Shown here in pieces: positions 9,812 through 35,306 of a stretch of 64,000 nt of DNA (position 1 is its first letter; the number at the start of each line of letters is the position of its first letter). Source of the DNA: a virus (lineage: Duplodnaviria > Caudoviricetes). Below the pieces are notes generated by a model. That model was not told the DNA's origin. It was given only the letters and a program-made list of their open reading frames with translations, and did no database searches. Both the position numbers and the translations under genes were made by a program. The DNA lies in the IMG/VR virus record IMGVR_UViG_3300037424_002485, positions 24,022-88,021 of that record; one strand, 5' to 3'.

Positions 9812-9824
9812 AGGAGGCAGTACA

Positions 9825-19370: not shown

Positions 19371-19595
19371 ATGACAGCCCTGGAGAAATTAGAAATTCAA
19401 ATCAGAGAAACACCTCTACCCGCACGTCTCCGCTTGTGCTCGGCTATGATAGGCAAGATGTGCGCAGAAGGTAGACCGCCGCGTATGAGCATTCCGGTAC
19501 AATGGAATGACGAAGACGTTTTTATCAGCACAACTATCGCGGACGCATTAAAGGAACTCGATGACGACTCAGTCAGTTCAATCATTACGATATAA
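19371..19595 (+). CDS. phage hypothetical protein
   Basis: MCAEGRPPRMSIPVQWNDED. Confidence 0.5.
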   Translation: MTALEKLEIQIRETPLPARLRLCSAMIGKMCAEGRPPRMSIPVQWNDEDVFISTTIADALKELDDDSVSSIITI

Positions 19596-20244
19596 GCTCG
19601 AAAATTTGAAGGGGCAGCGCCAGCAGCTCGCTGCCGACTGCCGGGCGGCTGGCGACCGTATCGTCGGCCTCCAACAGGACGCCGTTGACAGTGAAGAGGC
19701 CCGCGTTATCATTCAAACAGTAGCACAGCAGACGCAACGCGAACTCGAATATCACATCAGCGAAATAGTCAGCCTTGCGCTCGCTGCTGTGTTCGACGAC
19801 CCCTATACGCTCCGCTTGGAATTCGTGCAGCGCCGCAACCGGACGGAAGCCGATATTCTCTTCGAGCGCGACGGCCAGACCTATCGACCAGCGGACGCCA
19901 GCGGAGGCGGGGCTGTAGACGTAGCCGCGCTCGCCTTGCGCATAGCCATGTGGAGTCTGCGCAGACCGCGGAGCCGAAACACGCTTGTCATGGACGAACC
20001 CATGAAAATGTTGAGCAAGGATATGATGCCGAAAGCCGCGGCCATGCTTGCCGAAGTCAGCCAGCGGCTCGGCTTGCAAATAATAATCGTTTCGCACTCA
20101 CAGGAATTAATCGAAGGCGCAGATAAATGGTTCACGGTTGCAATAAATAAGGGGGTGTCACATGTCAGTGAAGGCAGCGCGGCAAATAACAACAGCGGGA
20201 TTGAGAAGCAACAATCTATGATCGTCCCTCGTAGAAGAAATTAA
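19561..20244 (+). CDS. SbcC/Rad50-like ATPase, C-terminal half
   Basis: Coiled coil, ASGGG signature, LVMDEP Walker B, IIVSH. Confidence 0.8.
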   Translation: MTTQSVQSLRYKLENLKGQRQQLAADCRAAGDRIVGLQQDAVDSEEARVIIQTVAQQTQRELEYHISEIVSLALAAVFDDPYTLRLEFVQRRNRTEADILFERDGQTYRPADASGGGAVDVAALALRIAMWSLRRPRSRNTLVMDEPMKMLSKDMMPKAAAMLAEVSQRLGLQIIIVSHSQELIEGADKWFTVAINKGVSHVSEGSAANNNSGIEKQQSMIVPRRRN

Positions 20245-20868
20245 ATGAAAAAGAAAAGAAACGTTAAGCGGGCCCATGCGGTATGGAATAAACATAATCC
20301 TGAAAATCCTATTATAAAAGGTGACGGTTATTGTATTCACCATAAAGATGAGAATCCAGAAAATGATTCTCCTGATAACTTACAAAAAATGATTCACGGA
20401 GAACATAACTCGTTTCATAATAAAGGTAAACAATATTCCCTCGGCATAAAACACACAATGGCAACTCGTAATAAAATGAGTGCCTCTATGAAAAAACTAT
20501 GTGTGGGTAAAGGTAATGGGTTTTATGGGAAGCGTCATACTATAGAAACAAAATTAAAAATGTCCAAAATAAGAACTGGTAAAATAATGACTGAAGAAAC
20601 AAAACAAAAATTATCTATCGTATTAACAGGGAAAAAACGAACAGACGAAACAAAACAAAAAATAAGTGAGATGCGTAAGAAAACAGGTAGCCCGTGGTTG
20701 TTGGGCACTCATCATACTATGGAAACAAAATTAAAAATATCACTTGCGACTAAAGGGCGTATGCCTTGGAATAAAGGAGAAAAATTATGCAACGAAGAAG
20801 TAAGAAAAAAGATGTCGATATCAGCAAAAGCACGATGTCTAAGAATGAAGTTATTATCAAACAAATAA
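20245..20868 (+). mobile_element. free-standing HNH homing endonuclease with NUMOD3 repeats
   Basis: IHHKDENPENDSPDNL..HNSFH plus about six H/xT-x-ET[KR]xK[MIL]S repeats; strongly AT-rich. Confidence 0.85.
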
Positions 20869-21032
20869 CTGAAATAAGAACTAAAAATAATATTGCATGG
20901 ATGGGTATACTTGCTCTTGCCATAAATAAAGCGCCACGAGAAGCACGGCGACTGATGACGCAGATAACCAAGAACGACATGGCCGTCAGCAAGTTGTCGG
21001 CGCGCCTCGGCGCCGGCGGACGTAAGAAATGA
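20835..21032 (+). CDS. small hypothetical protein
   Basis: RTKNNIAWMGILALA; ATGA overlap with the spsF-like gene. Confidence 0.55.
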   Translation: MSKNEVIIKQITEIRTKNNIAWMGILALAINKAPREARRLMTQITKNDMAVSKLSARLGAGGRKK

Positions 21033-21844
21033 GCGGAGTTGTAGCCATAATTTGCGCACGCATGGGAAGTTCTCGCCTGCCCGGTAAAGTACTGAAGCCG
21101 TTGCCCGGCGGCCCCGTACTCGGCGTCGTAGTCGATCGGGTTGCCAGCGCGCAGACTGTTGACCGCGTCGTCGTAGCAACTACGCTGAGGAAAGCCGACG
21201 ATCCTATTGTAAACTTTTGCCGCGGACGCGGTATAGACTGCTACAAGGGCAGCGAAGATGATGTTCTCGACCGCGTCTATCAGGCCGCCGTCGAGTACGG
21301 CGCGGAAATCATCGTAGATATAACTGCGGACTGCCCGCTTGTTGACGGCCGACACATCGACCGAATAGTCAGGGAGTTGCGCGGCGAGCACGACACCTTC
21401 GCCGAAGCCGGTGATTTCAGAGGTTATCCGGATTACGTGTCTAATTGCTGGCAGCGCGAATGGCCGGACGGCTTAGACATTCAAGCCTATACTTTCGCCG
21501 CGCTCAAGGCGGTTTGGGACAGCCCTGATAGCGTACGCGAACACGTCGGCTGGAATATCGCCCAGCAAGCCGAGAGCCTGGGTTTTTACCTGCGCCAGAT
21601 ATGCGCGCCGCGTAAATACGCGCATCCCGAGTGGGGTCTCACCCTCGACGAAGCCGCCGACTACGAACTCCTTAAAAAATTATTTACAGAAGGCGTACTT
21701 GCCGGCGGCGATCATTTGTTTCCCGTCGAGTATATCATTGAATATCTGCTCGAACACCCAGAGATGCTCGACATAAATGCAGGCATTCGTCGCCACGTGA
21801 ATTCAAATAACAGGGCCGCACAATTTATAGAGGATACCAGATGA
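21029..21844 (+). CDS. SpsF/PseF-type nonulosonate cytidylyltransferase
   Basis: ICARMGSSRLPGKVL, VATT..DD, GSEDDVLDR, ITADCPL. Confidence 0.9.
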   Translation: MSGVVAIICARMGSSRLPGKVLKPLPGGPVLGVVVDRVASAQTVDRVVVATTLRKADDPIVNFCRGRGIDCYKGSEDDVLDRVYQAAVEYGAEIIVDITADCPLVDGRHIDRIVRELRGEHDTFAEAGDFRGYPDYVSNCWQREWPDGLDIQAYTFAALKAVWDSPDSVREHVGWNIAQQAESLGFYLRQICAPRKYAHPEWGLTLDEAADYELLKKLFTEGVLAGGDHLFPVEYIIEYLLEHPEMLDINAGIRRHVNSNNRAAQFIEDTR

Positions 21845-22011
21845 TAAAAATAATCGCGGCTTTATTGTGTATGGGCGGGTTAGTCGGGGTATTGCTGCTT
21901 ATTGTCCGCTGGAAAGTGCGTTATGAAATCCGAAGGCTTGAACGCCACAACGAAGCGCTCAGGCAAGACGACGAGCAAACACAACGAATGATCGATCAGG
22001 GCATGCGATGA
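21841..22011 (+). CDS. 56-aa membrane peptide (absent from ORF track)
   Basis: MIKIIAALLCMGGLVGVLLLIVRW; ATGA overlaps at both ends. Confidence 0.45.
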   Translation: MIKIIAALLCMGGLVGVLLLIVRWKVRYEIRRLERHNEALRQDDEQTQRMIDQGMR

Positions 22012-22337
22012 ATATTTGGGCTGTCATAAAAGAGGCGCTTAAAATCGTCACCGCCGAACGGGTTAAGAAAGCCGAGCAGGCCGAACGCAAGGCTGTCGCC
22101 CGAGCGTTTAATGACCGCTACACCTTTCGCCGCGAATGGATAAAGGGTATGCCGGATCTGCCCGGCGAGGGATTGTTTGGGTTGAAATGCCGGTCGGGTT
22201 ACGCGTGGATGTGTCCCGACTGTAATAAAATTTATCATCCCTATGAAATAAACGTATTCACCGGATTGCAGTACCCGGCGTGTTGCGGCACATTTAAAGG
22301 CTGCCGATATGAAGCTGGTATAAAGGAGCGCGACTGA
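22008..22337 (+). CDS. hypothetical Cys-rich protein
   Basis: WMCPDC..YPACC. Confidence 0.5.
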   Translation: MNIWAVIKEALKIVTAERVKKAEQAERKAVARAFNDRYTFRREWIKGMPDLPGEGLFGLKCRSGYAWMCPDCNKIYHPYEINVFTGLQYPACCGTFKGCRYEAGIKERD

Positions 22338-22338
22338 A

Positions 22339-23415
22339 ATGAACGAAGACATAAATATAATTAAAGAAGTCGATTGCACACGCTTCGCTCCACAGCCTAT
22401 AATTTATAACGTGGTCATCATCGGCTGCGGGAGCATCGGTAGCAGTAAATCAGACGCCTACGATAGCCCGACTACCGATGCCGTACTCACCCATGCTCAC
22501 GCGTTTTACCGGCACCCGAATACCGAGATCACTGGGTTCGTTGATCGCGATGTGGAGAAATCGGCGGCTGCGTTTCGTAAATGGGGTACGGCGAAAACTA
22601 TAGTCGGGAACTATACCGATGCGGGCACGTTCTTTTTAGCAGCGCGTCCGGACATCGTTGTCGTGAGTAGTCCGACGGAAACGCATAAGGATGTATTGAT
22701 GGATTTGCTCAAATTAAAAGATTATAACGGCTGGCAGCCGCGACTCGTTGTCGCCGAGAAACCGTTTTGCTCATCGCTGGCAGAAGCCCAAGAGGTTGCA
22801 GCGGCCTACGCCGCTGCCGGTATTCCCGTCCTCGTGAACTACACACGGCGCTTCGACCCAGTCGGTATGATTACGCTTAACCAATTACGTGCGGGTGAAT
22901 ACGGCAGTATATATCACGCGCGCTGCCTGTACGGTCGCGGACTTCGGCGCGACGGTTGTCACGGCGTAGACATTCTCAACTACGTACTCGGCAGAGTACA
23001 AGGACTATCATTTAACCACAGCTGCATCGACGACTACATACCCGACGATCCGTCATACACGTTACGCCTCGAATATGAACGCTGCGGCGAAACATATATG
23101 ATCGCTGCCGACAGCCGGGAGTGGGGTGCATTTGAACTCGAATTTGTTTGCGCGGAAGGCATTGTCGCGTTTTATAACTGGGGCAAGCAAGTGAGGATTT
23201 ACCGGCCTGAAGAGGAGAGTACATACGGCCAGTATAAGTCGTTGTCGCGTGTCGGCTGCCGAGTAGAGCATATCGAGACCGCGCTGCCCAAAGCACTTTT
23301 ATATATGGCCGACGCTTGCATACGCCACCTGCGCGACGGCGAGCCGTTGCCGTGCACGCCTGTCGACGCACTGCGCGTATGGGAAGTACTGGTGGCGGTC
23401 GGAGATAAGCGATGA
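22339..23415 (+). CDS. Gfo/Idh/MocA family NAD-dependent oxidoreductase
   Basis: IIGCGSIG, H..A, AEKPF, VNYTRRF, GCHGVD. Confidence 0.9.
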   Translation: MNEDINIIKEVDCTRFAPQPIIYNVVIIGCGSIGSSKSDAYDSPTTDAVLTHAHAFYRHPNTEITGFVDRDVEKSAAAFRKWGTAKTIVGNYTDAGTFFLAARPDIVVVSSPTETHKDVLMDLLKLKDYNGWQPRLVVAEKPFCSSLAEAQEVAAAYAAAGIPVLVNYTRRFDPVGMITLNQLRAGEYGSIYHARCLYGRGLRRDGCHGVDILNYVLGRVQGLSFNHSCIDDYIPDDPSYTLRLEYERCGETYMIAADSREWGAFELEFVCAEGIVAFYNWGKQVRIYRPEEESTYGQYKSLSRVGCRVEHIETALPKALLYMADACIRHLRDGEPLPCTPVDALRVWEVLVAVGDKR

Positions 23416-23585
23416 AAGCATCAGAATTGATTTGTCGATTAACGGAAATAATGAAAACGTGCGGCGACTTACCGGTATACGGACAGGCGGATTGGCAGTG
23501 GGAATTGGAGACATGCAAGATAGACGAAGGCCCGCACAATCAATATGACGACACCGTAGAACCCAAACGAGTTATATTAAATTGA
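23412..23585 (+). CDS. 57-aa hypothetical protein (absent from ORF track)
   Basis: MKASELICRL..GDLPV; ATGA overlap. Confidence 0.45.
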   Translation: MKASELICRLTEIMKTCGDLPVYGQADWQWELETCKIDEGPHNQYDDTVEPKRVILN

Positions 23586-23935
23586 GAATATTTGGCGATA
23601 AAGGACCGGTGATGACCGCGCTCGAATTTATAAAATATGTACGCGGAAAATTCCCTTGTATACCGGGTGACCCGCATAAACGCGGGCAACCTGCGAGCAA
23701 CGGGCAACTTCGTAGATGGTGTGATATGGGAGCCGTGAGTATAAATGAAAAAACATCGAGATGGAACGATATGGTTGAATTTCCAATTTGGGAGTTTACG
23801 TTCTTTCCCAGTAGTAAAAATAAAATACGACTGCATTATTCGGAAAAGGATAAGAAATTTCATGAGTTCTGGGATTCATTAGAACGGCAATATAAAAATG
23901 GAACGTTGACTGTTATTCAAATAGAGGAGGAATAA
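23582..23935 (+). CDS. AT-rich hypothetical protein
   Basis: SNGQLRRWC..FFPS. Confidence 0.5.
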   Translation: MRIFGDKGPVMTALEFIKYVRGKFPCIPGDPHKRGQPASNGQLRRWCDMGAVSINEKTSRWNDMVEFPIWEFTFFPSSKNKIRLHYSEKDKKFHEFWDSLERQYKNGTLTVIQIEEE

Positions 23936-23936
23936 A

Positions 23937-24191
23937 ATGTTTACAATCGAATTGGGCGTACAGGCAGAAAGCAATATCACGGGACTCAAAGGCACGGTCA
24001 CATCACGGTCGGAACATCTCAATGGTTGCAATCGGTACTGGGTACAGCCAAAGATAGGAAAAGACGGCAAAGTGCCCGAAGGCATGTGGCACGATGAAGC
24101 CGAACTCGTCGTCAAAAAGAAACCTATCTTCGAGCGAGTCTTCGAGCGAGCGAATAACGATCGCGGCGGCTTTCCGAGCGCGATAAAATAA
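23937..24191 (+). CDS. phage hypothetical protein
   Basis: IELG..ITGLKGTVTSRSEHLNGCNRYWVQP..WHDE. Confidence 0.65.
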   Translation: MFTIELGVQAESNITGLKGTVTSRSEHLNGCNRYWVQPKIGKDGKVPEGMWHDEAELVVKKKPIFERVFERANNDRGGFPSAIK

Positions 24192-24199
24192 AGGAGAGT

Positions 24200-24388
24200 G
24201 TGATGCCCGGTAAAAAGAGAACAAAGAAATCAAAGAAAAAAGAATCCGCAACAGACGTCCGACGTAAAGCTATAGACGCTTTGCTTGCCAATAATGATAA
24301 CGGAGGAATAACCCCGGCTGATCTTCGTGCATGCTTCACGTTTGTATTAGACGCTATCGAACAGGAGACAAAACAATGGCAAAATTAG
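24200..24388 (+). CDS. small hypothetical protein
   Basis: Basic N-terminus; overlaps the next start. Confidence 0.4.
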   Translation: MMPGKKRTKKSKKKESATDVRRKAIDALLANNDNGGITPADLRACFTFVLDAIEQETKQWQN

Positions 24389-25755
24389 CTCTGTTCGGCG
24401 GCACCCCGGTTCGTGCCGAACTCTTCCCGAGTCAAAATACGATCGGGCCTCTGGAAATCGAAGCCGCGAACCGCGTCCTCGCCAGCGGAAAACTAACCGG
24501 CTATCAGGGTAACGGCGGCGAGAACTTCCGGGGTGGCGTAAAAGTCCGTGCCCTCGAAGAGGAATGGGCGGCTAAGTTCGGCGTACGCCACGCCATCGCT
24601 TGCAACTCGGCGACAAGCGGATTGTTTATCGCCTGCGGCGCCGCCGGTATGGACCGCGCCGACGCCGGTGACGTCGTCGTCACGCCGTTCTCAATGTCGT
24701 GCTCAGCCAGCGTCCCGCTCGGCTGGAAACACGGCGTACGCTTCGGCGACATCGAACGCGACTACTATTGCCTGAGCGCGGAGAGCGTCGGCAAGCACGT
24801 ACTCAACACGTTTCAGAAATACTCAGCAGTCATCCCTGTCAGCTTGTTCGGGCAACCCTATGATTGCGAGGCGATAAACGCCGTCGCCAAGGAGAAGGGC
24901 GTATACGTTATCGAAGACGCTGCGCAGGCGCTCGGCAGTATGTGGTACGACAAACAAGATGTCGGCCACTACGCCGGTACGCTCGGCGACATCGGTGTGT
25001 ATTCATTCAATTTGGGCAAGCATCTGACGTGCGGCGAAGGCGGAATGATTGTTACCGATAACGATGAACTCGCAATGCGCTGCCGCCTGATTATGAATCA
25101 TGCCGAAGCCGTTGTGCACGACCTGGCGAAATCGCCGTGGGTAGACGTTAAATCGAGCGCAGGATTACCTCTATGTACAAGTATACCGACTGAAAACTTC
25201 AAGACCGTGTACGGCTTCAATCTTCGCATGACTGAAATATGCGCGGCTATCGTTAGGGTACAACTGGCTCGGATGGATGCGATGATTCAGCAGCGCGTGG
25301 ATAACGTCACGCACATCATCAACCGGCTCAAGCATATTCCCTGCCTGGGTATGCCTGCTGTGAGGCCCGGCTGCACGCATACATATTACGTACTCCCCTT
25401 GAAGTACGATCCTCTTCTCGGCTGGAAAGAAGGCCAGGGCATCGCCGAGACTTCGCCGATGCCTATCTCCCGCGATCTATTCGTTGACGCCGTCCGTGCC
25501 GAATTAAAGCCAACTAAGGACAGGGAAAGCGAAGGCGTAACCGTTGGCGGCGGCTACTGCCGGCCCATTCAAAACATGCCGTTGTTCGACCGCAGTCTCG
25601 ACGAAACGCCTGAGTGCCAGCGGCAGTGGGCGGACGAATTGATTATTGTCCACCGCATGTTTGGGCCTAATGCCAGCAGGCGCGATCTCGACGATATTTG
25701 CAACGCCTTCGAGAAAGTCTGGGATTACCGGGAAGAATTGATGACGGCGAAATGA
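24376..25755 (+). CDS. DegT/DnrJ/PseC-like PLP sugar aminotransferase
   Basis: [32 protein letters not shown] (PLP lysine), GFNLRMTE. Confidence 0.9.
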
Positions 25756-25964
25756 TTGAGTTCAACAAGCGGCGCGACCGCTTCTCGCACGGATTCATTT
25801 TCATTTCACACGCCGAACTCGAAGAACGAGGAATCGTGTTCGACGAAACCCTACATCGTATCGGCAGCGGCGTTATGTATAACGGCAGCAGGCATTCGAT
25901 ATACGGTTTGGGTACGGCAGGGCTACTGATTTGGCCGCTCGGCAGACGTGCACCGAGAGAATAG
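25752..25964 (+). CDS. small hypothetical protein
   Basis: ATGA overlap with the aminotransferase stop. Confidence 0.4.
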
Positions 25965-25972
25965 GAGACGAT

Positions 25973-26308
25973 ATGGCATGGAAAGTTGCTATAAATCAAC
26001 ACTGGAATAATCCGGGCGCAGCGGACGTCATTATTTATCGAGAAGCAGGCGGCGATAAAATTCAAGTCCTCTACATTGAAGACGCCAAGACGTGGACGGT
26101 GAGCGTGAAGGAATTCTCGGCGGCAGCCGTCGTCGAACCCTCGCTGCGCTTACCCGCAGGCGTTCTCGAAGCGCTTATGGCCGGCTTGCAGGAGCACGGG
26201 ATCAAACCGCCCGGCGAGCATAAAATCGCCGGGCTATACGAGGCTACGAAATATCACCTTGAGGATTTACGCGGCCTGCTTAAACTTAACGGAGGCGTGA
26301 AGAAATGA
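25973..26308 (+). CDS. hypothetical protein
   Basis: RBS aggag; ATKYHLEDLRGLL C-terminus. Confidence 0.55.
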   Translation: MAWKVAINQHWNNPGAADVIIYREAGGDKIQVLYIEDAKTWTVSVKEFSAAAVVEPSLRLPAGVLEALMAGLQEHGIKPPGEHKIAGLYEATKYHLEDLRGLLKLNGGVKK

Positions 26309-27372
26309 TAACAAGTACTGCGAATTTGGAAGTGGATAAGATGGGCGCGCAAATCGGTGATAAGCAGCCCGGCTTTTACGACGGTAAGGAGATTTTAATT
26401 ACCGGCGGCACAGGTTCATTGGGAAAAGCGCTCGTCAGGCAATTACTCGCTGAGCACCGCCCGAAAGGGATACGCATCTTCAGCCGAGACGAATTAAAAC
26501 AATATCACATGCACAACGACATCAAACAATGGCCGTCACCGTCGAAATGTCCGGTCGCCTTTCTTGTTGGCGACGTTCGCTGCTACGACCGGCTGCGGCG
26601 CGCGTTCAAGAGTGTCGATGTTATAATTCACGCAGCCGCAATGAAGCAGGTGCCCGCTTGCGAACAAAACCCACTCGAAGCCATTCAGACGAATGTGCTG
26701 GGTGCCGTGAACGTACTCAACGCAGCCATAGATTGCGGCGTCGAGCGGGTGATGAACGTATCGACCGATAAGGCAGCGAAGCCCGTCAACCTATACGGGG
26801 CGACGAAAATGTCGGCGGAGAAATTATTTATCGACGGTAACGTGTACACAGGCGGACACGGCACGCGGTTCGCCAGCTGTCGTTACGGTAACGTGCTCGG
26901 CAGCCGGGGAAGCGTCGCCCATGTTTTCCGCGCGCAGGTAGACGCCGGCCTGCCGATCACGCTCACGCATAAAGCCATGACGAGGTTCTGGATTACGCTG
27001 CCCGATGCTGCGCGCTTCGTCCTCGCCCGTACCGCAGAAATGCAGGGCGGCGAAACGTTCGTACCGCGAATGAAGAGCATGGGTATATATGAGATGGCAA
27101 GAGCGATATTGGTGGATAGTAAAAAAGCACTCATAGAAACTACTGATTTTAAAGATATAGGCATCCGACAAGGAGAGAAACTGCACGAGATTCTATTCAC
27201 TCGGGAAGACTACGTGTACGAATTCGGAGATCACTACCGCGTATTCGCAGCGCCGCGCATAGGCGAGGGTTACGGCAGAGCCGAACAATGGGAACTCGCG
27301 TCAAATCGAAATCCAAACGGGAACATTGGCGGCGATGAATTGCTGGCGATGATTACCGAGACCGGATTATGA
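26305..27372 (+). CDS. pseB: UDP-GlcNAc 4,6-dehydratase (inverting), PseB/FlaA1 family
   Basis: TGGTGSLG, SRDELKQ, HAAAMKQVPACE, STDKA, YGATK, RYGNVLGSRGSV, MTRFWIT. Confidence 0.9.
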   Translation: MITSTANLEVDKMGAQIGDKQPGFYDGKEILITGGTGSLGKALVRQLLAEHRPKGIRIFSRDELKQYHMHNDIKQWPSPSKCPVAFLVGDVRCYDRLRRAFKSVDVIIHAAAMKQVPACEQNPLEAIQTNVLGAVNVLNAAIDCGVERVMNVSTDKAAKPVNLYGATKMSAEKLFIDGNVYTGGHGTRFASCRYGNVLGSRGSVAHVFRAQVDAGLPITLTHKAMTRFWITLPDAARFVLARTAEMQGGETFVPRMKSMGIYEMARAILVDSKKALIETTDFKDIGIRQGEKLHEILFTREDYVYEFGDHYRVFAAPRIGEGYGRAEQWELASNRNPNGNIGGDELLAMITETGL

Positions 27373-27580
27373 ACAGGAGATCACACTGGGCGTGACGAGT
27401 CCGGGGAATACCGCTATAAGAGTCGCTAAAGCAGCGAGGCGGGCGAAAGAAAGTCGCTAACTAAACTCGTGTCCGGTTCATCGTCTGATTCTGTCAGGTC
27501 GAACTACTGACAACTCAGTAAAGCCGGAAAATTTATAATGAGGTCTACAATTTTAATCTAATTTCACAGGAGGGTGCCTG

Positions 27581-27841
27581 ATGTTCGGATTAGAGTATAT
27601 CTTAACATTCATCAAAATAGCATTCAATGTCGCATTCGCAATCGTGTCGGCATGGCCGATGTACTACGCCTGGAATTGTATCGCTCCGAAGTATCTGGCG
27701 GCGTACATTCCTCAGGTCTTCATCGCAATACCATACTGGCATATCGTCGGAATTTTTTTGGTCTGCACCTTCATCGGAGAGCAGATACAGAAATTGACCC
27801 CAAAAATAATCTCTATCGAACAGAAGAACGAAAACAAGTAG
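27581..27841 (+). CDS. small membrane protein
   Basis: RBS aggagg; two hydrophobic segments. Confidence 0.55.
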   Translation: MFGLEYILTFIKIAFNVAFAIVSAWPMYYAWNCIAPKYLAAYIPQVFIAIPYWHIVGIFLVCTFIGEQIQKLTPKIISIEQKNENK

Positions 27842-27882
27842 ACGATACATAGTTGAACAATTTGATAAAGGAAGGATTATAA

Positions 27883-28413
27883 ATGACGGTGTGGACGGAG
27901 CGCCTGATAGGCCGATGCCTTGCCCGGCAGATATTTAATAATAAATGCCTTGTCGTCGTACCCAACTGCAATTTCACCGGCGACGAAATTGACATTCTCG
28001 GCATAACCCGAGACCTGCGCATCATCGACGTCGAGATAAAAATAAGCCGAGCTGATTTAAAAGCGGACAGGCGAAAAGATAAATGGTTCACGCATTACGA
28101 CTGGCGCACAGACCGTGCGGCGTTCGGCAGGCGCGACCGCCAGCCCGTGCAATGGCCGCATCGCGTCTGGAAGCATTATTTTGCGCTGCCCGAAAAGATT
28201 TACATGCAGGAGCTGTTAGCCGAACTGCCGGCGGCAAGCGGGGTGCTTTTACTCCGCGATAACTATGCCGGCATCCGTTGCTTACGCCGAGCACAGCCGT
28301 GTCGCAGCGCCGACAGACTCAGCGCAGAAGACGCCGTCAATATCGCCCGCCTCGCCAGCCTGCGGATGTGGGATGCCTACAAAGAATTGGATGCCGCGAA
28401 TGATCGCGTATGA
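27883..28413 (+). CDS. MmcB-like PD-(D/E)xK nuclease-fold protein
   Basis: EIDILG..DVEIKISRADLKAD, HYFALP. Confidence 0.65.
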   Translation: MTVWTERLIGRCLARQIFNNKCLVVVPNCNFTGDEIDILGITRDLRIIDVEIKISRADLKADRRKDKWFTHYDWRTDRAAFGRRDRQPVQWPHRVWKHYFALPEKIYMQELLAELPAASGVLLLRDNYAGIRCLRRAQPCRSADRLSAEDAVNIARLASLRMWDAYKELDAANDRV

Positions 28414-28705
28414 TATGTTCGGCGTAAAGCAGCTCGCCTGCGCGGTCATTCGGGAAGCCGTCGAGGACTACACAGGCAGGGAGTGGAACGACAAACACGA
28501 GCGATTCAAAGAAAAGAAGGTTAGCGATAGACGCTGGCGATCGGCAACCGCGTTTCTCCACGGCAAGACCAGGCACGCCGCGTATACATCCATGCTTGAA
28601 TTTTGTTGCGAACTCGCTGGCGTGCCGGTATCCATAATTCAGAAAGGAGCGTTTGCAGATGACGTACACCAGCGAAGAGAAAGGCTTGAGGATTACCCCG
28701 TTTGA
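28400..28705 (+). CDS. hypothetical protein
   Basis: LACAVIREAVEDY..SATAFL..FCCEL. Confidence 0.5.
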   Translation: MIAYDMFGVKQLACAVIREAVEDYTGREWNDKHERFKEKKVSDRRWRSATAFLHGKTRHAAYTSMLEFCCELAGVPVSIIQKGAFADDVHQRRERLEDYPV

Positions 28706-29273
28706 CGCCAGCGTGCATGCGACTGAAATCAGTCGACAGTGGCTGAACGACGGCGAGACCTGCCGTTTTAACTCCTGGGGCGTGTTTCCGTATACGCGAA
28801 GCCAACAGGCTGCCTACGTCAAAACCATCGAAGACGGCGACCCGTCTAAAATTGTATGGGCGATAGAAATGATTGAAGGAGAAAAAATAATCCCGACCGA
28901 CCCGCCCACTCCGGGTGGTATATTGGTACAAAAAGTACCTCGTTGGCGACACGTCGGTAACTGTAGCCTTCAATCCATCGATATGCATAATCGAAGCGCC
29001 GAATTCGCCGTCGTCATCGGCTGCGCTAAGGCGCGCGGCAAAGACTATGGGAAAACGGTACTCGGCTTCGCTCTCGACCACGCATTCAAACGGCTGGGAT
29101 TGCACCGCGTATGGCTGGGTACATCGGCGGATAACGTCGGCATGCAAAAATGCGCAGCTGCCAACGATATGCCCAGGGATGGTATAATCAAAGACGGAAT
29201 GTGGAGTTGCGGGAAATTTGTAGACGTATATATTTATAATATAACTGAGGAGGATTATCGTGGCAGCCGATAA
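28659..29273 (+). CDS. GNAT N-acetyltransferase (PseH/RimJ-like)
   Basis: HVGNCSL..SAEFAVVIG, RGKDYGK, GLHRVWL; RBS aaggag. Confidence 0.8.
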   Translation: MTYTSEEKGLRITPFDASVHATEISRQWLNDGETCRFNSWGVFPYTRSQQAAYVKTIEDGDPSKIVWAIEMIEGEKIIPTDPPTPGGILVQKVPRWRHVGNCSLQSIDMHNRSAEFAVVIGCAKARGKDYGKTVLGFALDHAFKRLGLHRVWLGTSADNVGMQKCAAANDMPRDGIIKDGMWSCGKFVDVYIYNITEEDYRGSR

Positions 29274-30030
29274 AAACGCAGTACTCAATTTCTGGAACGA
29301 ATGCGCGTCGCTCAAGGAACGCGCGGGTACAAACGACCTTATCGCCAAGCAGTTGGAAATCGAAGCCATTGCCAAATATGTCGGCGACGGCCAGCGCATA
29401 CTCGAAGTCGGCTGCGGTAACGGTATCACGGCAGCAGAATTAGCCGCTCGCTTCGCTGTAGACATAATCGCCGTCGATTATGCTGGCGAGATGATTGCTG
29501 AAGCCCAAGAGCTTCACGCCACCCGCCCGCTCAAGGGCCAACTCGCCTTCGGGGAATGCGGCATAGAAAATCTGGCTGCGGTCAACGGGGAGTTCGACCT
29601 CGTATATACCGAACGCGTACTCATCAACCTGCCCGATTGGAACAGCCAGCGGCAGGCGATAGAAGCCGTCGGCGATAAGCTGAGGCCTGGCGGCAAGTAT
29701 ATTATGTGCGAGAACAGCCAGGACGGACTCGACGGAATAAATGCTGTGCGCGCAGCCAATGATTTACCGGTCATAGTCGCGCCCTGGCATAACCGATACA
29801 TGATCGACGCTGAACTCCAGCAGGACGTAAGAGGTCTTATGTTGATCGATATCGATTACTACAGCTCAACTTATTATTTCCTCAGCCGCATCGTCAATGC
29901 AGCTGTTGCCCGGCAAGAGGGACGCGAACCCGCCTACGACTCGGCCATAAATAAGCTCGCGCTGAGCACGCCGGCTCTCGGCAGTTTCGGACAGGGGAGG
30001 ATTTGGGTATGGGAAAAACAATCCACATAG
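29260..30030 (+). CDS. class I SAM-dependent methyltransferase
   Basis: ILEVGCGNG, AVDYA, FDLVYTERVLINL, LRPGG. Confidence 0.85.
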   Translation: MAADKNAVLNFWNECASLKERAGTNDLIAKQLEIEAIAKYVGDGQRILEVGCGNGITAAELAARFAVDIIAVDYAGEMIAEAQELHATRPLKGQLAFGECGIENLAAVNGEFDLVYTERVLINLPDWNSQRQAIEAVGDKLRPGGKYIMCENSQDGLDGINAVRAANDLPVIVAPWHNRYMIDAELQQDVRGLMLIDIDYYSSTYYFLSRIVNAAVARQEGREPAYDSAINKLALSTPALGSFGQGRIWVWEKQST

Positions 30031-31061
30031 GCAGCCGTGAAATAGGTGCAGGTCAGCCGCCGTTTGTCGTCGCCGAAATGTCGGGCAATCATAATCAGTC
30101 GTTGGGTACAGCGATCGATATAATACGTGCTGCCGCACAATGCGGAGCGCATGCCGTAAAACTGCAAACGTACACTGCCGACGTACTGACGATAAATGAA
30201 TGGCATAACGAATTCTTTATCGACAATAAAAAAAGCCCGTGGAAAGGACAGTCGCTACACACCCTTTATCAACGTGCGTGTACGCCGTATGAATGGCACG
30301 AAGTCCTATTCAAAGAAGCCAGTGCTTGCGAACTGCCTGTATTCAGCACTCCGTTTGACGAAACCGCCGTCGATTTTTTGGAGGCGCTCGGCGCGCCCGC
30401 GTATAAAATTGCCTCGTTTGAAAACAATCACCTGGCGTTAATCCGGCGGGCAGCGGCTACCGGGAAGCCTCTGATTATATCCACGGGTATGGCGACGCTC
30501 GCCGAACTTGATGATGCCGTTACAGCGGCCCGGCAGGCCGGGTGCCGAGACCTCATCCTGTTGAAATGCGTGAGCGCGTATCCGGCTGCGGCTGCCGACA
30601 TGAATCTCGCAACCATACCGCACTTGCGCCAGTTATTCGATTGCGAAGTCGGCTTGTCCGATCACACAAGAGGCTCAGAAATCGCCGTGGCCGCTGTAGC
30701 ACTCGGCGCGTGCATGATTGAAAAACACATAACGTTGAGCCGGGCTCTCGGCGGCGTCGACGCCAGCTTCTCGGTGGAGCCCAACGAACTCGACGAGCTG
30801 GTTACACGAACCCTGCGCGCGTGGCAGGCGGTCGGCAGCGTACATTACGGTATCACCGAGGCCGAAAAGTCATCGGCTGTCTACCGGCGTTCGGTTTACG
30901 CCGTCGTCGACATACGCGCGGGCGAAGTGCTGACTACGGCGAATATCCGCGTCATCCGACCTGGCCTCGGACTGGCACCGAAATATTATGACGTGCTCGT
31001 TGGCAAGACGGCGGCTGTCGATATCAGCCGCGGTACGCCCATAAATTGGGATATGATATAA
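30009..31061 (+). CDS. pseI: pseudaminic acid synthase (NeuB family) with SAF domain
   Basis: AEMSGNHNQSL (PseI-type), KLQTYT, STPFD, KIASFE, ISTGMA, GLSDHT, EKHITL, RPGLGLAP. Confidence 0.9.
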   Translation: MGKTIHIGSREIGAGQPPFVVAEMSGNHNQSLGTAIDIIRAAAQCGAHAVKLQTYTADVLTINEWHNEFFIDNKKSPWKGQSLHTLYQRACTPYEWHEVLFKEASACELPVFSTPFDETAVDFLEALGAPAYKIASFENNHLALIRRAAATGKPLIISTGMATLAELDDAVTAARQAGCRDLILLKCVSAYPAAAADMNLATIPHLRQLFDCEVGLSDHTRGSEIAVAAVALGACMIEKHITLSRALGGVDASFSVEPNELDELVTRTLRAWQAVGSVHYGITEAEKSSAVYRRSVYAVVDIRAGEVLTTANIRVIRPGLGLAPKYYDVLVGKTAAVDISRGTPINWDMI

Positions 31062-31076
31062 ATTTGGATTGAAAGG

Positions 31077-33677
31077 ATGAGAATGACAACTGAACTCTAC
31101 GAAAAGAACATGGCGGTCATCGCAGAAACTTACCCGGACTTTCACCGGTGGATACTCGACCAAAAGGATCAGGACTGGATAATCGCTGACGGCAATCAGC
31201 TGCACGTATCCGTCGGCGCGGTGTCACGTCCCGTATACGACGTCGTCGATCCCCTCAAGGAACTGAGTACAATAGACACGCTGCCCCTGCACAAAGAAAA
31301 CGTCAGCGTGTTCATCGGCCTCGGCCTCGGCCATACGGTAGTGCGCGCCTGTGAGAAAATGGAAAAGGGCCATCACGTCGTCATCATAGAACCCGTTGGC
31401 CAAATGTACCGGCTTGCGTTTGAACGCTATGACTTCTGCGAGCACATCAAATCGCACGCCCTTTTATTCGCGCCGGGGAAAGCCGAAGTCGATATGGTCA
31501 CCAATTATCTGGAAGCCGCTAAGGTTGTCACCGACTGGCTAGTGTTTATGGACAGCACGTGCGCGCGTCGCCGAGAATACACGGTTCTCGGCGAACACGC
31601 TATGGACATTCTCAATCAAATACAGTGTAACACGGGAACGGTCATGTCGGCAGGCGGTAAGATAGCCGACAATGACGTCGCCACGCTCCCCTATGTCATC
31701 CGACACCGCGGTGTCGCCGAACTGACAAACCTATTTGCCGGCAAGCCTGCCGTCTGCGTATGTACGGGGCCGAGTCTCGCCCGTAATATTCACCTGCTCC
31801 GCGCCGTGCAGGATAAGGTTGTTATCATAGCCGTCGGTCAAGCCCTGCGCCCGCTCCTCGCCTACGACATCCGTCCGGATTTTATCTGTACCGTTGATTT
31901 CGGCGACGTCAATATGACGCATTACGCCGGCCTCTGCGATGAAACTGTACCCCTCGTCACCATCAACAAAACCTACGCGCCACTGCTCACCGCGTATCGC
32001 GGGCCGAAATTTATATCGGCGGGCGCGTACAGCGTGGAGACAACGCACAGTCTGCTCAAGGATATGGGCGAACTTCCGCAAGGCGGTAGCGTCGCGCACA
32101 TGGCGTTCGGGTTGGCCGCAAATCTCGGCTGCTCGCCGGTGATGATAATCGGGCAGGATCTCGCGCTGGGCACGACCAGCCATTTCAATCAAGCCGACAG
32201 CATGGGCAAAATCGAAGTTGTAGACGGATCCATAAAATGGCGCATCGACGACCCGCGCAGCGACAAACTACACGGCCGCGATGACATCGGCATGGGTCCC
32301 GCTCAGTACGTACCCGGTTGGTGGGGAGAGCCTGTGCTCACTAACACCGGATTGATGTCGTTTATCACGGCGATGCAACGGCTGATAGAACAGTGCCCGG
32401 CAGCCGTCATAAACTGCACGGAAGGCGGTGCTCACCTTGTTGGCAGCCGGCGTATGTTTTTCGCCGACGCCCTCGCCAAGTACTGCGAACAGGCCGTCGA
32501 TAAATCTGTGCTAACGCCGCTGCTAACACTGCACCCCGACGCCAGCGCGCGAATAGCTGCTGCTCTACCGCTTCTCGTCAAGGACATAAAGACGCTGGAC
32601 ATAATTATCGAGCACGCCGGCAAAGCATTGGCTACCGTATTCCGCGCGCGCAATACAAAGACTCCGGAAAAACTCAAGAAGATACTCGAAGAAAATCTCC
32701 GCCATTCAGAAGTGGCTGCGGAAGCCGCTCGCCGCCTGCCGCCGATAAACTTGGCGATATACGGAGCCCGACGGCAGATACAAAGCCGGGAACTGAACGT
32801 GGACGGTAAAATGGAGCACGTGGTCGACAAGAAAAATAGAAAGGATTTATTGACGCGACTCAGTCGCAACGAACTCGTGCTCAAAGCCGCCAGGGATGCC
32901 GCTGTCGAAATGAAGAAGACGTATACGGAATGCCAGCGCTTACTGACGGCTGGCGCCGACAACCCTGCCGTGCTCGACCCGACGGGCGAGACGACGCCTG
33001 CTGATTTAAGCGACGCCTGCTATTATCTCGACATCGGCAATTTTGCGCGACCGCTGCTCGAAGCCAAGCGGGTATTAGCGGATGCGCTGTACGGTGACTT
33101 GAGCAGAGAAAAGGCCGCTAACGTCGTCGAACGCGCGATATGCGTTCGCGCCAATAAAATAGTTGCTGCCGAAGCCGCGCAAACCGCCGATCGTGATGCC
33201 GGTAAAAACTTATGGCCGCAATACTTCGACTTCATCGAAGACAGCCGACGCATGGGCCGTGACGACGATGACATGGACGCTGCCCTGGCGAAGATACGCG
33301 AAGCCATCGAATTAATACCCAGCCGTGAGGAAGCCCGGTGGGGTCTCGCCTCGGTGTTAATGCACCTCTGCCGATACGATGAGGCCGTTGCGGCCTACGC
33401 TGACCTCGTTAAGCTGTTTCCGGACAAGCCGCGCTATACATTTGAGTACGGTCAGACGCTGGTACTCGCTGGCAGGCAGCAGGACGGCTTGGAGAAAATA
33501 CGGGCGGCGATGACGGCGAGCGAGGAGTTCGATCACTTCTTCGGTGCGCTGGCCTCGCTGTATGCGGGCGCGGGGATGCGTGATGAGGCGCTGGCCGTTG
33601 CCGACAAACACCTGGAGCGATTCCCGCACGACCGCGAAGTGCTGGCGTTGAAGGCACGACTCAGTGCAAGCGAATAA
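31077..33677 (+). CDS. Maf (DUF115) family protein glycosyltransferase with C-terminal TPRs
   Basis: GPSLARN, IRPDF..VD, GGSVAHMAFGLAANLGCSPVMIIGQDLA, INCTEGGA; helical bundle followed by TPR-like repeats. Confidence 0.85.
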   Translation: MRMTTELYEKNMAVIAETYPDFHRWILDQKDQDWIIADGNQLHVSVGAVSRPVYDVVDPLKELSTIDTLPLHKENVSVFIGLGLGHTVVRACEKMEKGHHVVIIEPVGQMYRLAFERYDFCEHIKSHALLFAPGKAEVDMVTNYLEAAKVVTDWLVFMDSTCARRREYTVLGEHAMDILNQIQCNTGTVMSAGGKIADNDVATLPYVIRHRGVAELTNLFAGKPAVCVCTGPSLARNIHLLRAVQDKVVIIAVGQALRPLLAYDIRPDFICTVDFGDVNMTHYAGLCDETVPLVTINKTYAPLLTAYRGPKFISAGAYSVETTHSLLKDMGELPQGGSVAHMAFGLAANLGCSPVMIIGQDLALGTTSHFNQADSMGKIEVVDGSIKWRIDDPRSDKLHGRDDIGMGPAQYVPGWWGEPVLTNTGLMSFITAMQRLIEQCPAAVINCTEGGAHLVGSRRMFFADALAKYCEQAVDKSVLTPLLTLHPDASARIAAALPLLVKDIKTLDIIIEHAGKALATVFRARNTKTPEKLKKILEENLRHSEVAAEAARRLPPINLAIYGARRQIQSRELNVDGKMEHVVDKKNRKDLLTRLSRNELVLKAARDAAVEMKKTYTECQRLLTAGADNPAVLDPTGETTPADLSDACYYLDIGNFARPLLEAKRVLADALYGDLSREKAANVVERAICVRANKIVAAEAAQTADRDAGKNLWPQYFDFIEDSRRMGRDDDDMDAALAKIREAIELIPSREEARWGLASVLMHLCRYDEAVAAYADLVKLFPDKPRYTFEYGQTLVLAGRQQDGLEKIRAAMTASEEFDHFFGALASLYAGAGMRDEALAVADKHLERFPHDREVLALKARLSASE

Positions 33678-33998: not shown

Positions 33999-34028
33999 TT
34001 GACATTATTATAGAATACTATATATAAT
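33999..34028 (+). promoter_or_regulatory. consensus sigma70 promoter
   Basis: TTGACA (33999) - 18 nt - TATAAT (34023), AT-rich upstream; palindrome atactat-N5-atagtat (34015-34033) covers the -10. Confidence 0.7.
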
Positions 34029-34063: not shown

Positions 34064-34309
34064 ATGAACGCGATAGAATTTGTACAGGCATACCCGAACA
34101 TACTGTCGGCAATATCCATGGTTTGCGATCCTCGGTTCGCCGCGGTCGTCGAAGAACTGGAAGCCGTCGATCCCCATGACCTGATAACGCCAGCCGCTTA
34201 TTTTACCGGCACCGATCATGCGTATGGATTCGTGTTCTGCCTATTCTTCAACCGAGCCATTGCATGGGAAGCCGTGCAAGCCGCCGCGTTTAAAGAGGAG
34301 CTGAAATGA
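34064..34309 (+). CDS. small putative early protein
   Basis: RBS ggagg; first ORF after the promoter. Confidence 0.55.
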   Translation: MNAIEFVQAYPNILSAISMVCDPRFAAVVEELEAVDPHDLITPAAYFTGTDHAYGFVFCLFFNRAIAWEAVQAAAFKEELK

Positions 34310-34548
34310 GTTACTGTCAAGGGAAGAAAGATGATGAAATTTTCGTAGGCAACACAAGACTCGATAAAGGCATACCTGATTATTTATCCTGTCTTAAAAC
34401 GGTAAGGCTTGGCGATCAAGCGTTAGACATTTACGGCAGAGAACTTGATCCGAGCTATATGCTCCCGGTATTTATTGGTCGCAGTGAATCCGATAAATAC
34501 GAACAGATAATGGCACATCAAACCGCTCTAATTAGGCGGTCGAAATGA
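34306..34548 (+). CDS. small putative early protein
   Basis: EIFVGNT..LKTVRLGDQALD..PVFI. Confidence 0.55.
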   Translation: MSYCQGKKDDEIFVGNTRLDKGIPDYLSCLKTVRLGDQALDIYGRELDPSYMLPVFIGRSESDKYEQIMAHQTALIRRSK

Positions 34549-34775
34549 CGTCGAAATACGCCAGCGATCAGTTCCCGGCGGTGTGTGAATGCGGCCGCAT
34601 TCACACAGCCGCCGACTGGCAGCAGCTGGTCTACGTCGGCATTATGTCGGGTATGTGCGCGGGCCGGCGCTTTTACTGGGACTGCGAGATGCGGAATTGC
34701 GCGTGCGAGTCCACAATAGCGGTTAAATTAAAGGGTACGCAGCCAATAAATGGTGACGGGATTCAGCGCAGCTGA
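34545..34775 (+). CDS. small Cys-rich protein
   Basis: CECGR..WQQL..EMRNCACESTI. Confidence 0.55.
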   Translation: MTSKYASDQFPAVCECGRIHTAADWQQLVYVGIMSGMCAGRRFYWDCEMRNCACESTIAVKLKGTQPINGDGIQRS

Positions 34776-34802
34776 TCACCAGACCGGCAGGGGAGAAATA
34801 AA

Positions 34803-35306
34803 ATGCAAGCGACGGAGAAAAATCAAGATGTATTTTACACCGGGTGCCGTAACGGATTTATCGTGCTCGCACTCATATTTACGCTGCTCATGGTAATTTT
34901 TTGGCTGCCTGGATGCGCCTGGGCGGGAGGGAAAATTGACTGGACGCGTGGCTGGGATAAAACCGATACCGCCCTTCAGACTATGACCACAGCGGCCATC
35001 GGCTGGGACTGGATGCAAACCTATCAAGCACAAGCCCGTCATCAGCGCAATGATAAAGGCCAACTGTATCAAGAAGTAGGCTCCGCAAAGATATTCATCG
35101 GAGAGCATCCTTCCGGCGGACGTATAAACGGTTATTTCACAGCGTGCGTATTAGGACACGCCGCCGTCGCCTATCTACTGCCTAAAAAAATAGATATATT
35201 CGATTTTCGTATCCCCGCCCGTAATCTTTGGCAGGCTTTTTGGATAGGCGCTGAGGTAAATCAAGGCGTCCGAAATTATCAAGCCGGAGTGCGGTTGAAA
35301 TTTTAA
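34803..35306 (+). CDS. exported or envelope protein
   Basis: Hydrophobic leader ending AWA; DWMQT, GEHPS, C-terminal GVRLKF. Confidence 0.55.
   Translation: MQATEKNQDVFYTGCRNGFIVLALIFTLLMVIFWLPGCAWAGGKIDWTRGWDKTDTALQTMTTAAIGWDWMQTYQAQARHQRNDKGQLYQEVGSAKIFIGEHPSGGRINGYFTACVLGHAAVAYLLPKKIDIFDFRIPARNLWQAFWIGAEVNQGVRNYQAGVRLKF

Follow-up and report, generated by a model that had tools for sequence, protein, structure and literature searches.

In bacteria, genes for nonulosonate synthesis and transfer to protein are clustered in flagellin glycosylation islands that combine PseB, C, H, G, I, and F with a Maf transferase (Campylobacter, Helicobacter, Aeromonas, and Magnetospirillum magneticum). To our knowledge, nonulosonate protein transferases, Maf and FlmG alike, are known only for flagellins, and mycobacteriophage virion glycosylation is the sole established precedent for a phage modifying its own virion proteins in the way considered here. 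The mycobacteriophages of Freeman et al. 2023 reportedly encode glycosyltransferases that modify their own capsid and tail proteins; these are said to be conventional enzymes using host sugar nucleotides, with neither a nonulosonate pathway nor a Maf. Maf modifies flagellin before chaperone binding and export, as outlined by Parker et al. 2014, and Caulobacter FlmG, which joins TPR and GT-B domains, moves pseudaminic acid onto flagellins, the TPR mediating acceptor binding (PMC7591256). In Acinetobacter KL49, ElaB, ElaA, and ElaC are a CMP-legionaminic acid synthetase, a Gfo/Idh/MocA C8-oxidase, and an SDR reductase, respectively (PMC13656337). Giant eukaryotic viruses have their own sugar-nucleotide pathways and autonomous glycosylation, as outlined in a review (PMC4691112).

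The locus described here lies in a complete virus genome of 88,021 bp with a 127-bp direct terminal repeat, from which a stretch of 64,000 nucleotides (the window) was analyzed. At 21029-33677 on the + strand, the window carries a cassette of eight recognised families, flanked on one side by the replication module and on the other by the baseplate module. Upstream, in the same orientation, are genes for a polymerase, a clamp loader, a helicase, SSB, and UvsX; downstream, on the opposite strand, the late structural arm has genes for baseplate, tape measure, sheath, capsid, and portal proteins. These neighbors and the terminal repeat bore out the phage setting claimed in the original prediction, and profile matches recovered the eight families on the + strand where it had placed them. 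A tyrosine integrase was not found in the phage genome, and the widespread clade to which it belongs apparently consists of virulent, uncultured myoviruses with 70-120-kb genomes. The conserved module begins before the cytidylyltransferase gene, with a small ORF whose stop overlaps the next gene's ATG and whose actual start codon probably lies within it, near 20835. The features are as follows:

20787 to 21032, + strand: small helical protein, ~60-80 aa; conserved accessory gene of no Pfam or PHROG family
21029 to 21844, + strand: SpsF-like cytidylyltransferase, predicted CMP-nonulosonate synthetase (CTP_transf_3, PF02348, 100 bits)
22339 to 23415, + strand: Gfo/Idh/MocA NAD(P)-dependent sugar oxidoreductase (GFO_IDH_MocA, PF01408, 57 bits)
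24331 to 25755, + strand: DegT/DnrJ/EryC1 PLP-dependent sugar aminotransferase, PseC-like step (PF01041, 206 bits)
26305 to 27372, + strand: PseB-like UDP-GlcNAc inverting 4,6-dehydratase (Polysacc_synt_2; TIGR03589, 351 bits)
28653 to 29273, + strand: GNAT N-acyltransferase, PseH-like step (Acetyltransf_3, PF13302, 51 bits)
29260 to 30030, + strand: class-I SAM methyltransferase (Methyltransf_25/11)
30003 to 31061, + strand: PseI pseudaminic acid synthase with NeuB and SAF domains (TIGR03586, 473 bits)
31077 to 33677, + strand: Maf-TPR, 866 aa, predicted nonulosonate protein O-glycosyltransferase (MptE-like/Maf PF01973 and TPR families)

Profile searches upheld the proposed assignments at family level for all eight proteins, but only PseI passed its equivalog cut-off; PseB, PseC, PseH, and PseF did not. 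For the dehydratase, PseB (TIGR03589, cut-off 407.75) was by far the best model, with LegB scoring just 57 bits, and the top solved match was H. pylori FlaA1/PseB, the UDP-GlcNAc C6 dehydratase 2GN4 (E 2e-72). This enzyme keeps the catalytic stretch STDK...YGATK (D-K and Y-x-x-x-K), and its identity across the clade is 40-63%. The aminotransferase clearly belongs to the DegT family and had PseC as its best NCBIfam match, below the equivalog cut-off (TIGR03588, 173 bits against 423.5), and H. pylori PseC was absent among its solved matches at E<=1e-20. Its gene is conserved in the clade, and a lysine, which we take to be the Schiff-base lysine, aligned within a conserved S-F-x-x-x-K stretch. 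The GNAT, found in 49/50 related loci, is a generic Acetyltransf_3 protein that scored 27 bits with the PseH equivalog TIGR03585 (cut-off 93.1). The cytidylyltransferase, kept across the clade, is closest among solved structures to 6OEW (E 1.9e-27) and scored 22 bits with the PseF equivalog TIGR03584 (cut-off 205.7); it shares 39% identity with its counterpart in a chromosomal Desulfarculia glycosylation island (L116). The original prediction had also counted the methyltransferase as a member of the set. Homologs were present in 0/50 related loci, and the protein is unrelated to the methyltransferase of the Desulfarculia island; it is a lineage-specific add-on outside the conserved module.

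The synthase scored well above the PseI equivalog cut-off (TIGR03586, 473 bits against 340) and is 62-67% identical to bacterial PseI, including that of Pseudomonas, but shares only ~30% identity with NeuB of related phages, which is 271-297 aa long. The usual synthase of the clade is this short NeuB, which has no SAF domain and which the NeuB and PseI models score equally. The canonical PseI is a sub-lineage-specific replacement of the clade's SAF-less NeuB, and this exchange for a bacterial-type enzyme argues for a hexose precursor of the Pse type. A sugar of the pseudaminic-acid type is the most likely product predicted for the cassette, although its exact identity is uncertain because PseB, PseC, PseH, and PseF scored under their equivalog cut-offs and clade NeuB does not separate the NeuB and PseI models.

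The original prediction spoke of a full synthesis set, which did not hold. In searches whose controls matched, PseG (TIGR03590) was not found in the 88-kb genome (E<=1), nor in five further clade records (E<=0.1), four of which are complete or nearly so and one of which is 80% complete; likewise, no NeuC-type hydrolase (PF02350) was matched in this genome or in four other complete clade genomes. By homology, the pathway is therefore near-complete, without a recognised UDP-sugar hydrolase step. The Gfo/Idh/MocA gene, which invariably follows the cytidylyltransferase gene in the clade, encodes a protein with GxGxxG, EKP, Y198, and H208 invariant in 30 clade members, and 84/84 of its homologs are on contigs <=86 kb. 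It is only weakly similar in sequence to solved relatives. Its AlphaFold2 model (pLDDT 90.6) has sugar 3-dehydrogenases and an NAD-dependent glycoside hydrolase as fold neighbors, and the protein could modify the CMP-sugar or replace the missing UDP-release step. As in KL49, a cytidylyltransferase stands beside a Gfo/Idh/MocA enzyme in a nonulosonate cluster, and the KL49 case illustrates that such an oxidoreductase can use a CMP-sugar; in contrast to KL49, the phage cassette has no ElaC-type reductase and is Pse-like rather than Leg-like. A PseG bypass in which the Gfo/Idh/MocA protein would free UDP by NAD-dependent oxidation-elimination, with the SAF-less NeuB as synthase, strikes us as improbable.

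Maf-TPR matched PF01973 at 135 bits (cut-off 34.6), which identifies an MptE-like/Maf catalytic domain, and the NCBIfam PseD domain at 83 bits, under the full-length cut-off. The Maf domain is followed by a helical domain and by C-terminal TPR repeats at ~730-862. Its AlphaFold2 model (pLDDT 91.8) had M. magneticum Maf 5MU5 as the top Foldseek PDB match (E 2.8e-15 over 721 columns), with TPR domains of O-GlcNAc transferase next. At least 120 full-length homologs were found, all on contigs <=123 kb among the matches listed, and at >=32% identity the family occurred only on phage-sized contigs among the matches listed; 55 residues are invariant across 42 sequences. Here and in the clade, the gene adjoins nonulosonate biosynthesis genes. 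Together with the fold model, these data make Maf-TPR most likely a Maf-family nonulosonate O-glycosyltransferase predicted to act on protein Ser/Thr. Like FlmG, it would join a TPR arm for the acceptor to a cytoplasmic nonulosonate O-glycosyltransferase; however, FlmG is a cellular enzyme with a GT-B-like catalytic domain, an N-terminal TPR, and a known acceptor, whereas the phage enzyme is a Maf with a C-terminal TPR.

Maf-TPR and six pathway families recur, with order and genome location kept, in at least 46 further contigs of uncultured phages, and full-length Maf-TPR was found in 47 IMG/VR contigs as well as in ENA, JGI, and Logan contigs. Among non-redundant loci having a 10-kb upstream flank (n = 33), all six pathway families were present in 26 and in identical order in 22. 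Where downstream sequence is present, the cassette adjoins tail-fiber and baseplate genes, and ~40 metagenomes supplied dozens of independent assemblies in which the cassette has the same phage genes on either side. The search for the gene set in related phages that had been proposed earlier thus found it, syntenically and across the clade, and such recurrence across independent phage contigs identifies the cassette as a core module and rules out a chimera. Core-gene behavior, maintained down to 32% Maf identity, better fits an intrinsic phage function than accessory host conversion. Neither 50,697 deposited phage genomes nor PHROGs yielded a Maf homolog, and we did not find a published description of a phage nonulosonate synthesis-and-transfer gene set, in agreement with the earlier statement that no phage system of this kind had been described.

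The phage set resembles the bacterial flagellin islands in its clustering, in the families used for dehydration, amination, N-acylation, PEP condensation, and CMP activation, and in the Maf fold. Unlike these islands, it is a clade core module without a flagellin gene or PseG, the cytidylyltransferase has an obligatory Gfo/Idh/MocA partner, and the clade NeuB is SAF-less. The Desulfarculia island encodes a Maf-TPR homologous to the phage protein over its full length (30% identity in the catalytic part and 38% in the TPR part), with a flagellin-type gene ~17.5 kb distant; hence, the ancestral acceptor was probably flagellin. As in giant viruses, synthesis and transfer of the sugar would be virus-encoded and not host-reliant; giant viruses, however, have eukaryotic hosts and other sugars and transferases, with no Maf.

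That the phage makes a sialic-acid-like sugar and O-links it to protein, as originally predicted, fits the homology, the Maf fold model, and the strict conservation in the clade. We propose that the product of the cassette is a CMP-activated 5,7-diamino nonulosonate, which would be O-linked to protein within the cytoplasm of infected cells, and we give a virion protein about an even chance of being the acceptor. The gene families, folds, synteny, conservation, and absences are observed here, and the chemistry and the acceptor are predicted. The PseB-like enzyme would dehydrate and invert UDP-GlcNAc, the DegT enzyme would aminate the product at C4, and the GNAT would N-acylate the aminated sugar. 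Host PseG or the clade-specific Gfo/Idh/MocA protein are candidates for UDP release, after which PseI would condense the hexose with PEP and the SpsF-like enzyme would form the CMP-sugar; in the present sub-lineage, the methyltransferase may add a methyl group. Finally, Maf-TPR would place the sugar on Ser/Thr of an acceptor brought in by the TPR arm, in our view most likely at least one of the virion proteins that the phage assembles in the cytoplasm.

Flagellin (Flagellin_N) was absent from five clade genomes, this whole genome included, which extends the earlier observation made for the window; this absence and the syntenic core module count in favor of a virion acceptor. Maf action before export, as outlined for flagellin, would also suit virion proteins, given that their synthesis is cytoplasmic. 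Counting against it, no virion protein is conspicuously rich in Ser/Thr, and the cassette is on the strand of the replication arm. The flagellin-linked Desulfarculia homolog and the missing UDP-release enzyme also count against our best explanation. On balance, we favor virion proteins, with the evidence about evenly poised, over host flagellin, which we regard as unlikely though plausible. Somewhat more tentatively, a cosmopolitan clade of virulent myoviruses may coat its own virions with a self-made sugar of the pseudaminic-acid type.

If Maf-TPR instead glycosylated host flagellin or another surface protein, e.g., pilin, the outcome could be superinfection exclusion, less trapping of progeny, or a change in motility. 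Every characterized Maf acts on flagellin, according to the account of these enzymes in PMC7591256, the chromosomal Maf-TPR of the same architecture belongs to a nonulosonate island with a flagellin-type gene nearby and is most similar to the phage protein in its TPR part, and transcription of the cassette runs with that of the early/middle arm. However, the phage looks virulent, having its own replisome and no tyrosine integrase found, and new flagellin joins only growing filament tips, so masking would be weak within one lytic cycle. Host-conversion genes are usually patchy, whereas the cassette is syntenic and near-universal across deep clade divergence. Mis-binned contigs carry MAG labels from unrelated phyla, some of them non-flagellated groups, and so point to no flagellated host.

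Still less probable is another target, be it a phage protein outside the virion structure, a cytoplasmic protein of the host (e.g., a defense or regulatory factor), or a non-protein acceptor, or else mainly a boost to the host's CMP-nonulosonate pool that would serve host glycoconjugates. No acceptor was found, the absence of PseG is compatible with a host already running the pathway, and TPR arms, such as that of OGT, can bring in diverse proteins. Yet five or six pathway enzymes of its own argue against reliance on a host pathway, protein O-glycosylation is the only activity known for Maf enzymes, the cassette has no polysaccharide glycosyltransferase, and the families go unmentioned in a DNA-glycosylation paper. 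An artifact, through a contig that joins host and phage DNA or through misassembly of a bacterial island into the viral record, has negligible likelihood: several homologous contigs carry bacterial or archaeal MAG labels, but these contradict each other and belong to contigs with phage baseplate genes, and the genome is complete with its terminal repeat, with the same cassette and phage neighbors in dozens of assemblies.

If true, a near-complete pathway and Maf in a phage core module would extend nonulosonate chemistry to viruses, and protein glycosylation directed by phages would gain a second case with a chemistry of its own. The likeness to mycobacteriophage glycosylation would be phage-directed virion modification, which is our favored reading and here is predicted in silico. 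With a virion acceptor, Maf-TPR would be the first enzyme known to transfer a nonulosonate to a viral protein rather than to flagellin. Phage-directed glycosylation of this kind may affect adsorption and the stability of the particle, as well as receptor masking and recognition by other organisms. New enzymology to test includes a route to a Pse-type sugar that lacks PseG, a Gfo/Idh/MocA protein dedicated to the CMP-sugar synthetase, a synthase of the NeuB type that has no SAF domain, and a TPR-armed Maf potentially useful in glyco-engineering.

The small-ORF protein that opens the module matched no Pfam or PHROG family. It had blastp matches in 36 related loci, mostly between GNAT and Maf, and is joined to the GNAT C-terminus in four (L007, L081, L086, and L090). 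As a lead only, its structural look-alikes (Atlas) include C-termini of viral GNAT and formyltransferase clusters.

The IMG/VR record, of which the window covers bases 24022-88021, spans 88,021 bp and carries a 127-bp direct terminal repeat, so the phage genome is complete. The cassette is located on the + strand, between a replication arm and a structural arm organized in the window as follows:

1-20 kb (+): replication/recombination module encoding a sliding clamp, helicase, DNA methyltransferase, family-B polymerase, clamp loader, SSB, UvsX-like recombinase and split SbcC/SbcD
35-60 kb (-): tail and baseplate genes (tail fibre, Mu-like baseplate, tape measure, sheath)
35-60 kb (-): head genes (head-tail adaptors, major capsid protein, portal, head-morphogenesis proteins)

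Neither a tyrosine integrase nor tRNA genes were found in this phage. By capsid protein, Azospirillum phage Cd comes closest among deposited phages (43.5% identity), and the lineage is thus uncultured. Neither the MAG labels of homologous contigs, which conflict with one another (Alphaproteobacteria, WWE3, Melioribacteraceae, Desulforudis, Woesearchaeota), nor the PseI relatives, which come from many phyla, supported a host assignment. The SbcC/Rad50-like ATPase is apparently split between 15371-16447 and 19561-20244 (+), about 3 kb apart, and in 18 related loci its C-terminal half is conserved just ahead of the cassette. An HNH/NUMOD3 homing-endonuclease gene (20245-20868, +) lies between this half and the cassette, and on the related phage contig carrying P0007 an HNH/NUMOD3-type gene separates Gfo from DegT; mobile endonucleases therefore move within the module. 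Right after the cassette is a perfect sigma-70 consensus (33999-34028, +; TTGACA, 18 nt, TATAAT), 3' of which four small + strand ORFs of unknown function (34064-35306) converge on the tail-fibre genes.

All eight enzyme families of the original prediction were recovered within 21029-33677 (+), PseI being the sole cassette enzyme above a curated equivalog cut-off (473 vs 340 bits). By sequence, the dehydratase is clearly PseB-like (PseB 351 bits, FnlA 216, LegB 57); among solved structures it is closest to H. pylori FlaA1/PseB, and it retains the catalytic D-K and Y-x-x-x-K. The DegT aminotransferase, the GNAT (Acetyltransf_3) and the cytidylyltransferase (CTP_transf_3) matched at family level only. 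The module also includes a small ORF, 20787-21032, that is conserved and whose translation is coupled to that of the cytidylyltransferase; the original prediction had left it out. Six further small ORFs without a Pfam family are interleaved, with PHROG matches of unknown function or none:

22008-22337: small ORF
23582-23935: small ORF
23937-24191: small ORF, present in seven related loci
25931-26308: small ORF
27574-27852: small ORF
27883-28413: small ORF

Because all but 23937-24191 were not found in related loci, they were rejected as parts of the pathway.

The same gene set, sought in related phages, was widespread among them. All four genomic contexts of Maf homologues that were inspected, one of them on a contig labelled in the database as a "candidate division WWE3" MAG, contained the cassette beside Mu-like baseplate genes. 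An alignment-based IMG/VR scan with Maf found 47 viral contigs, drawn from about 40 metagenomes; groundwater and sediment were among the sampled sources. A 10-kb upstream flank was available for 33 non-redundant loci: 26 of these encoded all six pathway families, and 22 had them arranged as cytidylyltransferase, Gfo, DegT, NeuB, PseB, GNAT, Maf. Seven loci lacked one to three families, mostly at the far end, as expected if the cassette extends beyond the flank. Where a downstream flank was available, a variable stretch was followed by the same two small tail-fibre/baseplate-proximal proteins and then by Gp48 and baseplate J. Phages related more remotely through baseplate J (at most 36% identity) lacked the cassette. 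This distribution marks the cassette as an ancient core module of a single phage clade, and the objection that the contig is a host/phage chimera falls, given the terminal repeat and synteny in independent assemblies. Variation within the clade was also observed. In eight related phages a gene for a BNR_2 (sialidase-like beta-propeller) protein of 350-375 aa, possibly nonulosonate-binding or -cleaving, lies between NeuB and PseB, for example:

L070:6844-7947 (+): BNR_2 gene in a related phage locus

Locus L074 (IMGVR_UViG_3300032516_000039) seemingly lacks a PseB-like gene and encodes, upstream of GNAT, a TIM-barrel protein resembling xylose isomerase (8705-9376); this locus may represent a variant pathway.

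The usual synthase of the clade is a NeuB of 271-297 aa without a SAF domain, encoded between DegT and PseB and scoring equally with NeuB and PseI models. The window synthase, at only about 30% identity to it, is of the canonical PseI type: it has a SAF domain, matches bacterial PseI proteins of many phyla at 62-67% identity and is encoded just upstream of Maf. No remnant of the short NeuB was found in the window. A 23.6-kb contig belongs to the same sub-lineage (Maf 95% identity, PseI 89%), in which a cellular PseI has replaced the ancestral synthase. Since the upstream enzymes stayed unchanged across this swap, the replacement is the best argument that the cassette's sugar would be of the pseudaminic type. 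The methyltransferase had no counterpart in any related locus and perhaps came in together with PseI; kinship to the methyltransferase of L116, a bacterial glycosylation island, was rejected, as the two are unrelated.

The original prediction of a full synthesis, activation and transfer set did not hold for synthesis. Neither PseG (TIGR03590) nor NeuC-type hydrolysing epimerases (PF02350) were found in the whole phage genome, whereas control genomes matched. The same enzymes were not found in four other complete or near-complete clade genomes (71-122 kb), nor was PseG in one 80%-complete record. The synthase requires a free hexose, yet no such enzyme is encoded; UDP could be released by a host-supplied PseG or by a conserved cassette protein. 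The Gfo/Idh/MocA protein is the only conserved cassette enzyme without an assigned step, and its gene always comes next after the cytidylyltransferase. GxGxxG, EKP, Y198 and H208 are invariant. None of its 84 detectable homologues was on a contig longer than 86 kb, and it is therefore clade-specific within the reach of the search. Fold neighbours included sugar 3-dehydrogenases (GnnA, glucuronide 3-dehydrogenase, GenD2, KijD10) and the NAD-dependent glycoside hydrolase 8QC5, and dehydrogenase, ketoreductase and NAD-dependent glycosidase roles were not told apart. The protein might modify the CMP-sugar or release UDP in an NAD-dependent manner. The same cytidylyltransferase/Gfo pairing has a documented precedent in ElaB/ElaA, where a Gfo-type enzyme oxidises C8 of CMP-legionaminic acid (PMC13656337); unlike the Ela system, the phage has no ElaC-type reductase.

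The predicted transferase, Maf-TPR (31077-33677, +; 866 aa), combines an MptE-like/Maf domain (residues 204-364) with C-terminal TPRs. Its AlphaFold2 model (pLDDT 91.8, pTM 0.84) best matched the Magnetospirillum Maf glycosyltransferase 5MU5 in Foldseek (E 2.8e-15), with O-GlcNAc transferase TPR arms ranking next. Among 5.8 billion proteins searched, 368 matched, and the best 120 of these were full-length Maf-TPR proteins (about 850-1000 aa, 35-95% identity), all on contigs of at most 123 kb. In the related phage locus L004, the gene directly before Maf-TPR encodes a TROVE/Ro60 and vWA protein (526 aa; 8387-9967, +).

By analogy, the TPR arm favours a protein as the acceptor: the TPR domain of FlmG binds flagellins (PMC7591256), and OGT shares the TPR-armed architecture of the phage protein. 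We give roughly an even chance to virion proteins as that acceptor. The module behaves like core genes of a clade that looks virulent, and does so across deep divergence; it also adjoins tail-fibre and baseplate genes. Maf is reported to act on flagellin ahead of chaperone binding and export (Parker et al. 2014), and virion proteins, too, are products of the cytoplasm. Candidates for the virion acceptor include the capsid protein (50527-51993), sheath (44472-45974), tail fibre (35405-35989) and the protein at 36023-36601. Nor is flagellin encoded: as already noted for the window, PF00669 was not found in the whole genome (control genomes matched), nor was flagellin in the four other clade genomes and the 80%-complete record. 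No Ser/Thr-rich virion protein stood out among the ORFs; the best scorers were antisense or spurious ORFs and one repeat region. At 11322-11570 (+), an 82-aa ORF is composed nearly entirely of Ser-Trp/Ser-Arg dipeptide repeats, with a Ser/Gly-rich ORF on the opposite strand; the stretch is of note because the O-glycosyltransferase gene is not far off, but instead of a gene it may be a non-coding repeat.

A less likely acceptor is a surface protein of the host, flagellin or another. Flagellin is the acceptor of every characterised Maf, and a Desulfarculia chromosome encodes a Maf-TPR (1002 aa), homologous over its full length, within a nonulosonate island, about 17.5 kb from a flagellin-type gene. 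The TPR is the part best conserved between the two proteins (38% vs 30%, the former inflated by TPR consensus residues), and the cassette shares its orientation with the early/middle arm. However, masking of flagellin within one lytic cycle seems of little use. Other targets are improbable. DNA, which phages do glycosylate, was rejected, as a paper on DNA glycosylation that was checked makes no mention of these families and Maf with TPR points to protein.

Modification of virion proteins has its nearest published precedent in mycobacteriophage virion glycosylation, which reportedly uses different enzymes. In agreement with the prediction that no such phage system had been described, full-text literature searches found no description of a phage-encoded nonulosonate pathway with a Maf transferase, and Maf-TPR matched no PHROG family. 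Among 50,697 deposited phages, neither megablast with the cassette nor tblastn with Maf found any match, and PseI gave three weak matches only. The parts of the cassette are all from known families, and its chemistry is deduced from sequence and modelled structure; the viral carrier, PseG-less route, Gfo partner, SAF-less synthase and TPR-armed Maf without flagellin would be the new features. Outside the cassette, a radical-SAM gene lies in the replication arm (window 6963-7841, +), Mom-like and radical-SAM genes lie directly upstream of the cassette in L004 (1-868), and the phage polymerase has its nearest relatives in Seurat-, CAjan- and JG054-like phages, which may indicate DNA base modification in this clade.
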